DNA of 64,000 bases, taken from contig CACWNR010000009.1 in NCBI GenBank assembly GCA_902762355.1, forward strand, positions 290 to 64,289, in the 5' to 3' direction. The notes beneath the pieces were generated by a model. The model was given only the letters and a program-made list of their open reading frames with translations, was not told the origin of the DNA and made no database searches. Positions 32,938 to 37,406 of the stretch are shown in pieces. How positions within the stretch are numbered: the stretch's first letter is position 1; every line of letters starts with the position of its first letter. Source of the stretch: an uncultured Bacteroidales bacterium (GTDB lineage: Bacteria; Bacteroidota; Bacteroidia; Bacteroidales; Paludibacteraceae). Both the position numbers and the translations under genes were made by a program.

Positions 32938-33654
32938 TTATTTCTTAAGTAATTCTAAATATTCCTGAATTGTTTCTTGGATGCCCAGATAGAGCGAGTC
33001 GCAGATGATGGCGTGTCCAATCGACACTTCCGCTGTCCATGGGAAAGCCTTGATGAACGGCTTGAGGTTCTTGAGGTTGAGATCATGACCGGCGTTCATA
33101 CCCAGACCCAACTCGTGCGCTTTCTCTGCCGCAGGACGGTACTTCTCGATAGCGCGTTTCGGATCGCTCTCGAACAGCTCCGCATAGGGACCCGTATAGA
33201 GCTCCACACGGTCAGCGCCTGTACGCAGTGCGTACTCGACCATCACCGGATCCGGATCCACAAAAATGCTCACGCGGATACGATACGAGTGCAATTGGTT
33301 CACCACGCCCTTGAGGAAATTGAGGTTCCTGCGCGTGTCCCAGCCGTGGTTAGACGTCAACTGACTCGGATCGTCAGGCACCAGCGTCACCTGCGTCGGA
33401 CGGATATCCGTTACCAGCGCCAAGAACTCGTCCGTCGGATTACCCTCCACGTTCAGTTCGGTCGTCACCATCGACTTGAGTTGATACACATCTTCCTTGC
33501 GGATATGACGCTCATCGGGACGCGGATGAACCGTTATTCCTTGCGCTCCGAACAACTCGCAATCCACCGCAAAACGCTGCACATCAGGCAGATTACCGCC
33601 ACGCGCATTACGCAGCGTTGCGACCTTATTGATATTTACACTCAGTTTCGTCAT
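32938..33654 (-). CDS. pdxJ: pyridoxine 5'-phosphate synthase
   Basis: LSVNINKVATLRNARGG.. The ATG at 33654 is preferred because a -7 box lies at 33678-33685. Confidence 0.93.
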   Translation of the reverse strand: MTKLSVNINKVATLRNARGGNLPDVQRFAVDCELFGAQGITVHPRPDERHIRKEDVYQLKSMVTTELNVEGNPTDEFLALVTDIRPTQVTLVPDDPSQLTSNHGWDTRRNLNFLKGVVNQLHSYRIRVSIFVDPDPVMVEYALRTGADRVELYTGPYAELFESDPKRAIEKYRPAAEKAHELGLGMNAGHDLNLKNLKPFIKAFPWTAEVSIGHAIICDSLYLGIQETIQEYLELLKK

Positions 33655-33677
33655 GTCGAGTATTTTGAAAATCGCTG

Positions 33678-33685
33678 CAAAGATA
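33678..33685 (-). promoter_or_regulatory. -7 box TATCTTTG for pdxJ
   Basis: Minus-strand GTATCTTTGCAGCG about 25 nt upstream of the ATG at 33654. Confidence 0.5.
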
Positions 33686-33730
33686 CAACAAAAATTGCAT
33701 ATATGCAAGAAAAAACAAAAAAATCACAAT

Positions 33731-34078
33731 TTATTGTTCAAAGGGGTGTGCTTGTTTGTAATCGTGAATGAGCGAATTATATTTCCACGCACGGACAGTG
33801 GTGTAGGTTTTGCCGTTGGAGGCGATGTGGTTTGCTGCCTCGAAGTCGGCAGCCAGTTGCGCCTTGGCTTCCGGAGAGGTTAGGAGTTTGAGTTGGGAAT
33901 TGGCATATTTAAAGGCAGCAGAGTTCCATTTCTGGCGAGGAGACTGATTCTTTTGATAGTCTTCGTCACGTTCACGATAAAATTGTCTGCCATTTCGCAT
34001 GTAAAAATAACCTCTGTCGCGGTTATACGTCTTACCGTGGATCTGTTCGATACCTGAAGATGCTATTATTCTTGACAT
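33731..34078 (-). CDS. hypothetical small basic protein
   Basis: 115-aa ORF with its own -7 box (34245-34252) and a leader of about 160 nt. I recognise no family. Confidence 0.45.
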   Translation of the reverse strand: MSRIIASSGIEQIHGKTYNRDRGYFYMRNGRQFYRERDEDYQKNQSPRQKWNSAAFKYANSQLKLLTSPEAKAQLAADFEAANHIASNGKTYTTVRAWKYNSLIHDYKQAHPFEQ

Positions 34079-34180
34079 AAAAAAGATTGTTTTAAAAAGT
34101 ATATTATATATAAATATATAATATAGTATTGTACATAAATTTGGGCTTCTTTTCGGGTCGACGTGGGCTAAACGTAGGCT

Positions 34181-34224
34181 TTAACTGTCGCTTCACCGTC
34201 GCTTGACCGTCGTTTGACCGTCGT
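34181..34224. repeat. 11-bp phased tandem repeat x4 (TTGACCGTCGY)
   Basis: ttaactgtcgc ttcaccgtcgc ttgaccgtcgt ttgaccgtcgt. Weaker 11-bp phasing (GGGCT/AGGCT) extends back to about 34160. Confidence 0.8.
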
Positions 34225-34244
34225 TCAAAGTCCCTTTTTCGGGT

Positions 34245-34252
34245 GCAAAGGT
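34245..34252 (-). promoter_or_regulatory. -7 box TACCTTTG
   Basis: Minus-strand AGTACCTTTGCACC upstream of the repeat-containing leader of ORF 33731..34078. Confidence 0.5.
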
Positions 34253-34540
34253 ACTGCTTTTCTTTGATATATGCAAATAAAATCCACTCAAAATATCATT
34301 TTTTTTAAAAATTGCATTATCCCACAAATTTTTGGAGCCAAAACATGCACTATCCCCAAAATGTTTCGAAGCAAGATATACACTGAGCGTAAAATTGGTA
34401 GGAGAGAAATATTCTCTGAGCGCAAGATTTACATCATGTCCCTCTGTTGGATGACATCCAACTCAATGAACGATGTAACCGGAATCAGATTCCGGGCTAA
34501 TGAACGAACTATATTAAAAAAGTGACAAAAAAATGATTTT

Positions 34541-35536
34541 TTATGCTAATGTTGATACATATCCATCTATATATGGTCGATTGTTAGTAACAACAGCGAA
34601 AGCTATGCGGATAAGTTTATTAGCGACAGCAATGATAGCAGCTTTGCCGGATTTGCCTCTCTCGCGTAAACGTACGAATGTATCTCGACAAGCCGCATTA
34701 CACTTTATAGATGCAACCGCGACAATATACAATTGACTGCGTAGATGTGTATCTCCGTTACGATTAATGTGACCTTTGAAATTAACTGACGTACCTGATT
34801 GCTGGTAGGTGGGACAAAGTCCTAGGAACCGCGAGATCTGTTTAGCACTGCTAAAGTACGTAAAGCCTCCTGTTGCCATTATGAGTGCAGAAGCGATATT
34901 TTCGCCGATTCCCTTAATGGACGTGAGTAACTCCATTTGGCGCTTAAACTCCTTGTTAGATAGATGGGTAATCTCGTCTTCTAACTTAGAAATTTGCTTA
35001 CGCAGGAACTTAATGGTTTGCTCGGTTGCAACTTTAGCCGTAGGGTCTTGCTTGGGTAGAACCGACAAGGAGTGCTGTAGATTGATCATCATCGTAAGTT
35101 GCTTCTTAAGTTGCCGAAGGACAGTGCGTTTCTGCTTTAGCTGAATGATGCTCTCTGACGGGATTTTATAGGGCGCTGGCTCCATTTTCTCACCATACAT
35201 AGCAATCAGTTTAGCATCGATCTCGTCTGTCTTGGTAGTGGACAACATGGCACGAGCAAAATGCTTAATCTTCTGCGGGTTCTCCATGCTAACGGTAATA
35301 TTAGCCTGTTGAAGCAGATAGAGGAGAAGCATACTATAGTTGCCGGTTGCCTCCATCACACAATGACATTCAGCCGGAAGCGATTGAATGAACTTACGCA
35401 CACCACTAGTGGTGTTAGGGAACTTTTGGGTTTTGTAATCTCCCTTAGTCGGATAGGCTGCTACGAACGAATCCTTGCTTACGTCAATACCAATGTAGGT
35501 CATAATGCTATTTGATTTATTGCGCTGATTAAACAT
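34541..35536 (-). CDS. IS110-family transposase/recombinase
   Basis: YIGIDVSKDSF (DEDD RuvC-like N-domain), C-terminal Transposase_20-like ..SIKGIGENIASALI..GLCPTYQQSG. Alternative start at ATG 35503. Confidence 0.9.
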   Translation of the reverse strand: MFNQRNKSNSIMTYIGIDVSKDSFVAAYPTKGDYKTQKFPNTTSGVRKFIQSLPAECHCVMEATGNYSMLLLYLLQQANITVSMENPQKIKHFARAMLSTTKTDEIDAKLIAMYGEKMEPAPYKIPSESIIQLKQKRTVLRQLKKQLTMMINLQHSLSVLPKQDPTAKVATEQTIKFLRKQISKLEDEITHLSNKEFKRQMELLTSIKGIGENIASALIMATGGFTYFSSAKQISRFLGLCPTYQQSGTSVNFKGHINRNGDTHLRSQLYIVAVASIKCNAACRDTFVRLRERGKSGKAAIIAVANKLIRIAFAVVTNNRPYIDGYVSTLA

Positions 35537-35690
35537 CGATACATCTGAACACTATCGTTGCAAATGCGGGGTCTGTGCCCTAATGAACTATCCAGTTTTT
35601 AGATGTATAAAGTATGGGGGCAAAACGTCCATTACGGTCTTGTGACAAACAAAGGATCGGCCTTACTCCATACTTTAGATGTCAAATCGG
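35504..35690 (-). ncRNA. candidate IS110 bridge RNA / structured 5' leader
   Basis: The -7 box at 35694-35701 predicts a leader of about 185 nt. A 10-bp stem (35608-35617 with 35668-35677) and a 6-bp stem (35541-35546 with 35601-35606) each enclose about 50-55 nt. ACATCTAAA occurs twice. Confidence 0.35.
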
Positions 35691-35693
35691 CTG

Positions 35694-35701
35694 CAAAGGT
35701 A
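35694..35701 (-). promoter_or_regulatory. -7 box TACCTTTG inside the IS110 element
   Basis: Minus-strand TACCTTTGCAGCC with an upstream TTTG at about 35725. Confidence 0.5.
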
Positions 35702-35739
35702 CAAAAAATATTTTGAATATACAACAAAGGACAGTTAGT

Positions 35740-35969
35740 GTTGGCAGGATGTGGCGGAGCGGTATCCTGCCAACACGGAACACCGGAATCCCGAAGGGAG
35801 AGCGGGCTATCCGATTGCCCTGCAATGGAAGAAAAATATTGCGGTGATACAATCACCGCGAAATGGACATACATTATGAACCAGAATACAATTTCTGGAA
35901 ATGGAAGAAGGTGGGATGTCGGAATTATATTCCGACGCAATAGACAAAGCTATGCCGATTGACAATCGG
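35740..35969. repeat. cluster of REP-like short hairpins
   Basis: Stems at 35740-35774 (11 bp), 35841-35859 (8 bp), 35881-35898 (6 bp), 35918-35936 (8 bp, CGGAAT tat ATTCCG) and 35955-35969 (6 bp). Confidence 0.7.
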
Positions 35970-35980
35970 TGGAATACAAA

Positions 35981-36009
35981 GAAAAACACCACGCTTTGCA
36001 GGCGTGGTG
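35981..36009 (-). terminator. rho-independent terminator of the island cassette
   Basis: Minus strand CACCACGC-CTGCAAA-GCGTGGTG followed by TTTTTC, 25 nt after the stop at 36034. Confidence 0.75.
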
Positions 36010-36033
36010 TGAAGTTAAATCGTCGTTGAGGAA

Positions 36034-36720
36034 TTACCAATCTTCCTCGCTGTCAGTGTTCTTAGGAGCGTAATGCTCGTTTAACCACGTAAGATAATAT
36101 GACGGATAACTCATCGTCTTTGCAAGCACATTGATCATTGCCTTTGCATGGACGTCTCTATCGTTTTTAGAGAAGTTCTTATAGTGCATAAACGGGTCTA
36201 AACGAGTGAGAGAATAGTTGAATAACTGATTCCCTATATGATAAGTCAAGTATGGTACATTAACTTTCATCTTCACTCTGTCGTCTTTGAACTTGAAATC
36301 AAAGATGATGTCTGCATCGAAGAAATATGTTGAGAGCATTACCTGTTGATATGCCAAATTTTGGTAATGTCCTTGAAAGAAAATGGACTTTTCTGTGCTT
36401 CCTTGTACTACGTTCGCACGGACGGTAGGAGTGAATTTGAAATAGTACTGCAAGAAATCCAGCGTCACATCTTTTATCTTTGCAATATCCAAGGTGTCGG
36501 ACGATTTAATTACAAACTCATACTCTATTTCTCCTTTCTCGTTGATACGATACGCGGCACTATCCACAATTGATTTTGCCCACGCTACATCCGAAGGATG
36601 ATTTTGCATAACACGGTTCCATTGTGCGATAGTTTCAGAAATCTTATCGCACGTGAATTGTTGTGCAAAACAACTGATACTTAGCCAACTAAGGCACAAG
36701 ATAAAAAATGTTCTTTTCAT
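36034..36720 (-). CDS. secreted hypothetical protein (DUF4468-like by pattern only)
   Basis: Signal peptide MKRTFFILCLSWLSISCFAQ, AT-rich codon usage, last gene of a 3-gene cassette. Confidence 0.55.
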   Translation of the reverse strand: MKRTFFILCLSWLSISCFAQQFTCDKISETIAQWNRVMQNHPSDVAWAKSIVDSAAYRINEKGEIEYEFVIKSSDTLDIAKIKDVTLDFLQYYFKFTPTVRANVVQGSTEKSIFFQGHYQNLAYQQVMLSTYFFDADIIFDFKFKDDRVKMKVNVPYLTYHIGNQLFNYSLTRLDPFMHYKNFSKNDRDVHAKAMINVLAKTMSYPSYYLTWLNEHYAPKNTDSEEDW

Positions 36721-36725
36721 TATCG

Positions 36726-37406
36726 TTAATTTTCTGTTATTCCTTTCATCATAAAATTCAGAAATTCACTCCCTAGGCGGCTTCGTTTATATAAACGCAC
36801 ACGTTCAGGATTACGGAATCGAATGTTTCCCCGTCTTCTACTGGCCATTTTCATGTATTCTTCACCATCAATCTCATCAACGAGACCAAGATATTTGAGA
36901 TTCAATAGATGCACAGGAATTATATCTGAATTATACTTACTTCCTATTTTCTCAACTAGTTGTCTCTCGTATATATAATTCTCAACGGCATTAAGAATGT
37001 ATATACTAAAATAATCTAATCGGTCCAGATAATTTGCAAATATTAGTTTGTTGCTGCAATTCAAACTATCAGGATGGATGCAAGCAGCTAAAAATGTAGC
37101 ATATAGTTTGCGTTTCTGTGCATTGAATTCATCTTTCGACTTTTGTAGTATCGGCAAAATATCATCCGTAAATGTTTGTATGTCAATATATGGCTTTATT
37201 CCTATTTGTCTCTCAATGCAATCTATTTTCAAATTTAACTCATTTAGAACCTCAATAATATTATTAACTTGTGAAGTGTTAATACCATCGCAGAAAGCAG
37301 TTATAGTAGCAGCTATAGGATTGGGATTGGCAACAAACTTTAACAACTGAATTGATATAAATTCAGCTCCAGTTGTTTTTGAAACTCTAATCTCTCCCAT
37401 AATCAA
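36726..37406 (-). CDS. hypothetical cytoplasmic protein (weak Abi-alpha-like feel)
   Basis: 226-aa ORF with no signal peptide, AT-rich, 6 nt from the downstream gene and 15 nt from the upstream gene. Confidence 0.5.
   Translation of the reverse strand: MIMGEIRVSKTTGAEFISIQLLKFVANPNPIAATITAFCDGINTSQVNNIIEVLNELNLKIDCIERQIGIKPYIDIQTFTDDILPILQKSKDEFNAQKRKLYATFLAACIHPDSLNCSNKLIFANYLDRLDYFSIYILNAVENYIYERQLVEKIGSKYNSDIIPVHLLNLKYLGLVDEIDGEEYMKMASRRRGNIRFRNPERVRLYKRSRLGSEFLNFMMKGITEN

Follow-up and report, generated by a model that had tools for sequence, protein, structure and literature searches.

Bridge recombinases are under development as programmable tools for DNA insertion, excision, and inversion; to our knowledge, the characterized ones come from Enterobacteria. 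In the IS1111 group, the seekRNA, or bridge RNA, is encoded in a long right end, and the elements carry subterminal inverted repeats of 7 to 17 bp. Previous work predicted bridge RNAs in 85.7% of IS110 elements and, for IS621 of Escherichia coli, defined the strand senses of the left and right target guides (PMC11208160). The IS621 RNA depends on a sigma-70 promoter that is rebuilt across the junction of the right and left ends (−35 box from the right end, −10 box from the left), so that the integrated copy relies on read-through (PMC13626964). Here, we describe a relative of these elements in a 64,000-nucleotide (nt) stretch of DNA, hereafter the window, from an uncultured bacterium of the Bacteroidales family Paludibacteraceae (assembly GCA_902762355.1, contig CACWNR010000009.1, positions 290 to 64,289 of the forward strand). 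It is very probably an intact IS110-group insertion sequence, with a bridge RNA specified by its 222-nt left end and, downstream, the gene for a DEDD/Ser recombinase of 320 amino acids (aa). Because bridge RNAs are predicted in most IS110 elements and the NCBI name of the recombinase family already includes the term RNA-guided, the element is of a known kind and an example of the mechanism described in 2024, not a new mechanism.

Element ends, core, and insertion site

Coordinates are window positions throughout, and the element and all features given below lie on the minus strand; the source assembly is 76% complete and consists of 36 contigs. The element ends were placed by alignment of approximately 45 homologous copies from other genomes (65 to 87% DNA identity), which occur in Paludibacteraceae, Prevotella/Xylanibacter, Bacteroides, and Phocaeicola, mostly in rumen or gut assemblies. 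The carriers include the cultured strains Xylanibacter ruminicola D31d, X. brevis ATCC 19188, Prevotella dentasini JCM 15908, and Bacteroides gallinarum DSM 18171, which makes the predictions below directly testable. In every copy context aligned, similarity starts at GTTGTATATT (35725) and stops at ...ATATAGTTCGT (34504), delimiting an element of 1,222 bp that includes the GT core at both junctions (34504 to 35725). These boundaries lie 14 and 8 nt inside the span of 34496 to 35739 that a first-pass annotation, made from the letters of the window alone, had assigned to the element.

The core dinucleotide GT was located by copy alignment at 35724 to 35725 on the left and at 34504 to 34505 on the right, and a sister clade has AT at the left position together with matching guide changes. 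There are no terminal inverted repeats. The noncoding ends measure 222 nt on the left and 37 nt on the right (34504 to 34540, ending ...AATATAGTTC-GT), and the RNA is encoded 5′ of the gene. An uninterrupted empty site with a single GT, TCCTTTGTTCATTAG (longer context, ...cgTCCTTTGTTCATTAGtcccgaatctgattcggg...), was found in a related genome at locus L089. This site identifies the target as TCCTTT-GT-TCATTA, with a single GT core, between two hairpins resembling repetitive extragenic palindromes (REP-like hairpins). Copy alignment and the empty site place the left target half, TCCTTT, at 35726 to 35731 and the right half, TCATTA, at 34498 to 34503. The layout of the window is that of L089: a GC-rich hairpin upstream of the insertion (35776 to 35738) and the REP-like hairpin CCGGAAT-CTG-ATTCCGG downstream of it (34495 to 34479), both in host DNA outside the element, flank the target. 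For the purpose of genome annotation, the locus is ordinary, consisting of one intergenic mobile element between REP-like hairpins.

The exact 14-nt target, TCCTTTGTTCATTA, has one other copy in the host genome (G000 C3:260425-260438; L108:1501-1514, minus strand), which is unoccupied and lies within an apparent SusD-like coding region. Sites with at most two mismatches number 20, compared with 12 for a reversed control. On these counts, a multicopy REP target was rejected.

Around the element, the intergenic DNA is built as an array of REP-like units (35874 to 35948 and 34446 to 34508). Each unit consists of a short TTGTNNATT-like linker and then a variable hairpin, such as GTCGGAAT-ATA-ATTCCGAC or the CCGGAAT-CTG-ATTCCGG hairpin. 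Such units also occur at other places in the host genome and in sister genomes (G000 C7:61250-61324, G010 C2:105799-105983, and L089:330-450), with the order sometimes differing. Separately, the right flanks of L079, L031, L042, and L081 place insertions beside short GC hairpins in repeats, for example, gcccttagggctaagaa or tcgagccccttgggcgagataagaac, and other guide variants may thus also aim at REP-like repeats.

Fold of the leader RNA and its match to target and donor DNA

The first-pass annotation had put forward the leader upstream of the recombinase gene as a candidate bridge RNA, a proposal now upheld by covariation among copies, by guide complementarity, and by guides that track approximately 30 insertion sites. 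We predict a bridge RNA of approximately 170 nt (35521 to 35692), with its start set just downstream of the −7 promoter box and its 3′ limit set at the end of the closing helix. RNAalifold analysis of 37 distinct copies (alignment A1) returned two modules, each composed of an outer stem, an inner stem, an internal loop, and an inner hairpin; the single-sequence fold had a z score of −3.1. The target-binding loop module (35608 to 35677) has a 10-bp outer stem, TAAAGTATGG (35677 to 35668) with CCATACTTTA (35617 to 35608), an inner stem of GGC (35660 to 35662) with GCC (35619 to 35621), and an inner hairpin at 35639 to 35648. The donor-binding loop module (35541 to 35606) has a 6-bp outer stem, ACATCT (35606 to 35601) with AGATGT (35546 to 35541), an inner stem of CUG (35593 to 35595) with UAG (35552 to 35554), and the inner hairpin UAGGGC...ACCCCG (35567 to 35582). 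Both stem-enclosed regions, with their 10-bp and 6-bp stems, had been described at these positions before the copies were compared.

Covariation was counted on a 27-pair, six-helix version of the RNAalifold structure across the 37 distinct copies. The structure was 98% paired, compared with 36 to 53% when the 3′ partners were slid, and the covariation score was 0.263, compared with 0.103 for shuffled alignments (0 of 500 shuffles as high). The comparative fold that had been suggested as a check thus recovered the two-loop structure. Both-sided, compensatory change occurred in 10 of the 27 pairs, and compensatory changes were found across the six helices: five pairs in the outer and inner stems of the target loop, all three pairs of its inner hairpin (helix 3), and pairs 92/161 and 106/148 of the donor module (alignment columns). 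At each of pairs 20/88, 34/77, and 51/58, at least three pair types were seen. A G·U pair is invariant at columns 107/147, and the donor inner hairpin (helix 6) is 99% paired with an invariant U·G. From these invariant pairs, G·U and U·G, the transcribed strand can be assigned, and they favor a structure of RNA over one of DNA. A two-base pairing between the donor guides in the RNAalifold output (columns 112-113 with 140-141) was left out as incidental. A search of 33500 to 36800 against Rfam 15 at permissive thresholds (E up to 10) returned nothing relevant, only chance matches (mir-31 and RybB).

Both modules are enclosed by a helix between the two ends of the RNA, in which the 5′ arm, CCGAUUUGACAUC (35678 to 35690), pairs with a 3′ arm in the tail after the donor module, CGAUGUUUAAUCAGCGCA (35521 to 35538). 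Each of the 38 distinct copies has this closing helix (mean z relative to shuffled tails, −3.4), and pairs formed by a copy's own 5′ and 3′ arms average −9.4 kcal/mol, compared with approximately −6 for cross-clade combinations. Only approximately 13 nt separate the predicted RNA start from the stem of the target module, and these pair with the 3′ tail; a 5′ stem-loop therefore has no room. The motif ACATCTAAA, which the first-pass annotation had reported as occurring twice, is indeed present in two copies (35682 to 35674 and 35606 to 35598), and the comparison refines their role to the 5′ arms of nested helices. The duplication of the ACATC/GATGT motifs is explained by their use in two closures, that of the donor module by one pair and that of the whole RNA by the other. 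Approximately 18 nt lie between the end of the closing helix's 3′ arm and the ATG, and no terminator precedes the ATG, from which the bridge RNA would be the leader of the recombinase mRNA, processed later or not. The earlier estimate of a leader of approximately 185 nt fits the start codon at 35503.

In the alignment, the left end is hypervariable in two patches only, which are the two sides of loop 1. The left target guide, UCCUUUGU (35649 to 35656), is identical at 8 of 8 positions to the left flank TCCTTT plus the core GT (35731 to 35724). The right target guide, UAAUGGAC (35627 to 35634), is the complement of the core plus the right flank, GT-TCATTA, with seven Watson-Crick pairs and one G·T. 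The window guides pair in the strand senses defined for IS621. Across the relatives, 33 distinct guide pairs were found at approximately 30 independent insertion sites. Guide-flank correspondence was assessed by permutation of distinct guide/flank pairs, with matches scored out of 9 and 5,000 shuffles made within core groups. The left guide matched the left flank plus core at 7.47 of 9 positions (32 distinct pairs; shuffled, 5.43), and the right guide matched the core plus right flank at 6.90 of 9 (30 distinct pairs; shuffled, 4.42); in neither case did any of the 5,000 shuffles reach the observed value. The expectation that guide segments would be complementary to the flanking target and the element ends therefore held for loops 1 and 2, respectively; it failed for the CGGAAT-type hairpins that had been named as the target. 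Guides matching these hairpins were rejected, as the guides match the TCCTTT-GT-TCATTA linker beside them.

Several bases next to the guides and core bear on handshake pairing. A G follows both right guides, and the left donor ends in C in every copy. Among 37 distinct sites, the base just left of the core is C in 26 and the preceding base is T in 28. These bases fit handshake pairing, and they can equally be read as an extended shared core, the donor having the same bases.

The guides of loop 2 correspond to the element's own ends. The left donor guide, AUAGUUCAU (35583 to 35591), reads AUAGUUC(AU) and matches the right-end terminus ATAGTTC(GT), and the right donor guide, GCAAC (35557 to 35561), is the complement of the left-end terminus GTTG(T). 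Loop 2 is conserved, as expected from the conservation of the element ends. A sister clade in Prevotella and Bacteroides has an AT core, and its elements start with ATTG and end with ACAGTTC-AT or ATAGTTC-AT. In the RNAs of that clade, the right donor guide is GCAAU, the left donor guide is ACAGUUC or AUAGUUC, following the right end, and the left and right target guides both end in AU (UU for the left guide in L056 and L059). With these matched changes, the core and all four guides covary.

Fragments of another relative were seen in the host. Contigs C13 (1 to 92) and C18 (1 to 94) of the host genome G000 (L004 and L003) begin with the last 92 to 94 bases of a second IS110 element, which is 99% identical to that in L032 (RUG337) and approximately 79% identical to the window element. 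Its flanks, GT-TAATA..., fit its right target guide. From these contig-end fragments, the host carries this second relative, with its different programming, in two or more copies, at which the assembly broke. Copies nearly identical to the present Bacteroidales element, not the second one, were also found on contigs binned as Ruminococcus, Oscillospiraceae, Alistipes, Caryophanon, and Faecalimonas (L023, L030, L036, L043, and L048). The L023 contig is 31 kb long and the other four are 1 to 6 kb; misbinned repeat contigs are a likelier explanation than a transfer into Firmicutes.

Recombinase gene and putative promoter

The gene downstream of the leader (34541 to 35503; 320 aa plus stop) encodes an IS110 recombinase by Pfam, NCBIfam, and solved-structure alignment, confirming the family assignment made from the sequence at first reading. 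The open reading frame (ORF) contains the Pfam domains DEDD_Tnp_IS110 (PF01548) and Transposase_20 (PF02371) and scores 229.5 bits against NCBIfam NF033542 (IS110 family RNA-guided transposase; cutoff, 140). The best relatives with solved structures are the ISCro4 and IS621 bridge recombinases (E of approximately 1e-32). Residues D7, E51, D93, D96, and S236-G237 align with ISCro4 D14, E, D105, D108, and S244-G245, which correspond to the IS621 active-site residues D11, E60, D102, D105, and S241-G242 (PMC11208158). All five catalytic residues are present in an N-terminal DEDD RuvC-like domain and a C-terminal Tnp domain with the catalytic serine, and the gene therefore looks intact. A mechanical ORF call extends from 34541 to 35536 (331 aa) and begins at an in-frame ATG at 35536. 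This start was rejected because homologues align only from residues 10 to 12 of the listed ORF; that alignment and the family N terminus, MTYIGIDVSK, place the start at the ATG at 35503. Calling the gene from 35536 lengthens it by 11 codons, which overlap the closing helix in its 3′ arm, and automatic annotation may misplace the start of such genes.

A putative promoter lies entirely within the left end. The canonical Bacteroidetes −7 box recognized in the first-pass annotation, TACCTTTG (TAnnTTTG), is present at 35694 to 35701, left-end nt 25 to 32, and TAnnTTTG occurs at left-end nt 23 to 25 in 28 of 29 distinct left-end heads. The predicted −33-like box is the TTG (left-end nt 2 to 4) of GTTG (35722 to 35725), which is made up of the core and the first two right-donor bases; the TTG itself comprises the second core base and those two bases and stands 18 to 20 nt upstream of the −7 box (20 in the window copy). 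The sequence TTTGTAyCTTTGCA occurs 12 times in the genome, the element's own copy included, with a TTG 18 to 21 nt upstream of the TA in 11 of the 12. An ORF follows within 300 nt at 11 occurrences (median, 28 nt), for which random positions, at 58%, are a weak control. Host promoter-like sites, of which there are approximately 100 in the genus, have an extended consensus of roughly TTTGCATATNT-N9-TTTTTTGTAyCTTTGCA. The element's left end (35684 to 35724) copies that extended consensus almost exactly. In the annotation of these genomes, the consensus could be used to model promoters. In the right end, the sole TTTG lies 44 nt from the −7 box, and a junction promoter with a right-end −33 box was rejected on this spacing. 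With both boxes inside the left end and no right-end box at a workable spacing, the integrated copy appears to have a complete promoter.

Alternative readings and comparison with known systems

The bridge RNA would probably be made from this complete Bacteroidetes-type promoter and would double as the 5′ leader of the recombinase mRNA. It folds into two modules under the 5′/3′ closing helix, with the target-binding loop formed by module 1, and AUAGUUC(AU) and GCAAC in the donor loop would address the joined right-end/left-end junction of a predicted excised circle. On the IS621 model, a recombinase tetramer with both loops bound would exchange strands at the GT core, and the circle would thus have been inserted into the TCCTTT-GT-TCATTA linker between the two REP-like hairpins.

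Several points weigh against reading the locus as an intact, bridge RNA-encoding element. The left guide matches its site poorly (5 to 6 of 9) in L023, L028, L032, L033, L072, and L074; these relatives may represent off-target insertions or drift of the guide after insertion. In the window copy, the left donor guide is mismatched at the first core position, where relatives have GU. The double changes in the stems often split just two clades, so that independent events are fewer than the cell counts. The promoter, the start site, and the discrete RNA are ones that we infer from sequence. The 76%-complete assembly holds a single full copy, which does not support recent activity in this host. The exact 19-mer of a right-end/left-end circle or tandem junction, ATATAGTTCGTTGTATATT, gave three matches in the genome contigs, all by chance and without insertion sequence homology around them, and a 23-nt degenerate junction gave none in the metagenome contigs. 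With a chance expectation of approximately 4 for the 19-mer in the sequence searched (our own estimate), these junction searches say little either way.

A real bridge-RNA element of which the window copy is a fixed, inactive relic is unlikely, though it deserves to be taken seriously. The single full copy, the junction searches, and the occurrence of only one other exact 14-nt target in the genome, in a coding region, would suit it. The intact ORF with all catalytic residues and the intact promoter boxes speak against decay, as do guides that still match the flanks of this copy (at 8 of 8 positions, and at 7 of 8 with one wobble) and close relatives (76 to 87% identical) at many different sites in sister genomes. 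It is highly improbable that the leader is an ordinary structured 5′ untranslated region belonging to the transposase mRNA (a translational attenuator, for example) that plays no part in site choice and matches the flanks only by coincidence. The RNA is cotranscribed with the gene, no terminator preceding the ATG, and the fold could affect translation with the closing-helix 3′ arm so near the start codon; however, such a leader predicts neither loop-1 sides that follow the flanks at approximately 30 independent sites, in bridge-RNA strand senses that 0 of 5,000 shuffles reproduced, nor a loop 2 that changes together with the element ends between clades. We find it scarcely credible that the conserved left end acts as DNA, through recombinase-binding sites or subterminal repeats, with the RNA fold as a by-product. 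A short inverted repeat, AATATA...TATATT, does lie beside the donor sequence in the left and right ends, and short subterminal repeats are known for IS110 elements (PMC11208160). Yet on the opposite strand, or in a DNA duplex, the invariant G·U and U·G pairs would become A·C mismatches; six helices show compensatory changes; and the guide segments lie 70 to 170 nt inside the end, away from the termini. Taken together, with ends, core, fold, guide-DNA matches and their covariation, catalytic residues, and the empty site all observed, we conclude that the leader is a bridge RNA in every respect open to sequence comparison.

The lineage offers a compact recombinase of 320 aa with an RNA of approximately 170 nt, cores other than CT, and predicted native function in Bacteroidales from a native Bacteroidetes promoter. 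Its 33 natural guide pairs, with their target sites, constitute a data set for reading the rules of targeting. Should the internal promoter be real, it would bear on the question of how IS110 elements are supplied with bridge RNA before circularization, a chicken-and-egg problem discussed for IS621 (PMC13626964). A literature search found no description of native Bacteroidales bridge RNAs; supplementary ortholog lists of published screens fell outside that search. We tentatively suggest, as a possibility somewhat short of an even chance, that Bacteroidales IS110 elements of this lineage form a distinct bridge-RNA subtype. In such a subtype, (i) a complete host-type promoter, its −33 box formed by the core and right donor, would drive constitutive synthesis of the RNA, so that expression, unlike that of IS621, would not await circularization; (ii) a 5′/3′ closing helix would replace the 5′ stem-loop and tie the guide RNA to the mRNA leader; and (iii) the lineage would have been naturally reprogrammed at least 33 times, with GT or AT cores.

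Among described elements, those of the IS1111 group share the recombinase family and the RNA-guided logic. In contrast to that group, the window element has a right end of 37 nt without structured RNA, encodes its RNA in the left end, and has an inverted repeat of at most 6 bp (AATATA/TATATT). ISPpu9 and ISPpu10 of Pseudomonas putida are likewise IS110-family elements that insert into REP or conserved intergenic sequences (PMC12288879; bioRxiv 10.64898/2026.03.19.712850), whereas the exact 14-nt target of the window element is not multicopy in its host. The best solved-structure match, compared by protein, is ISCro4/IS622 from a distant enterobacterial host (structure 9t56; bioRxiv 10.1101/2025.05.14.653916), which aligns over residues 3 to 311 (E = 1.5e-32), catalytic residues included.

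The most detailed comparison is with IS621 (PMC11208160, PMC11208158). Both elements combine a DEDD RuvC-like domain with a Tnp domain carrying the catalytic Ser-Gly, and both have a long left end with the RNA 5′ of the gene, the target loop coming first and the donor loop second. Each loop consists of a stem, a left guide, an inner hairpin, and a right guide; the left guides pair with the bottom strand and the right guides with the top strand, and the core takes part in all four pairings. The targets of both lie in REP-like intergenic DNA, and the G 3′ of the right target guide can pair, handshake-like, with the C that ends the left donor. The two differ in that protein identity is only approximately 30% (E of approximately 1e-32), the IS621 core is CT rather than GT (AT in the sister clade), and the right target guide of the window element is contiguous over 7 to 8 nt. 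Whereas the IS621 RNA has a 5′ stem-loop before the target loop, a 5′/3′ closing helix here encloses both modules, and in place of the IS621 junction promoter, the left end appears to contain a complete promoter of the Bacteroidetes −33/−7 type.

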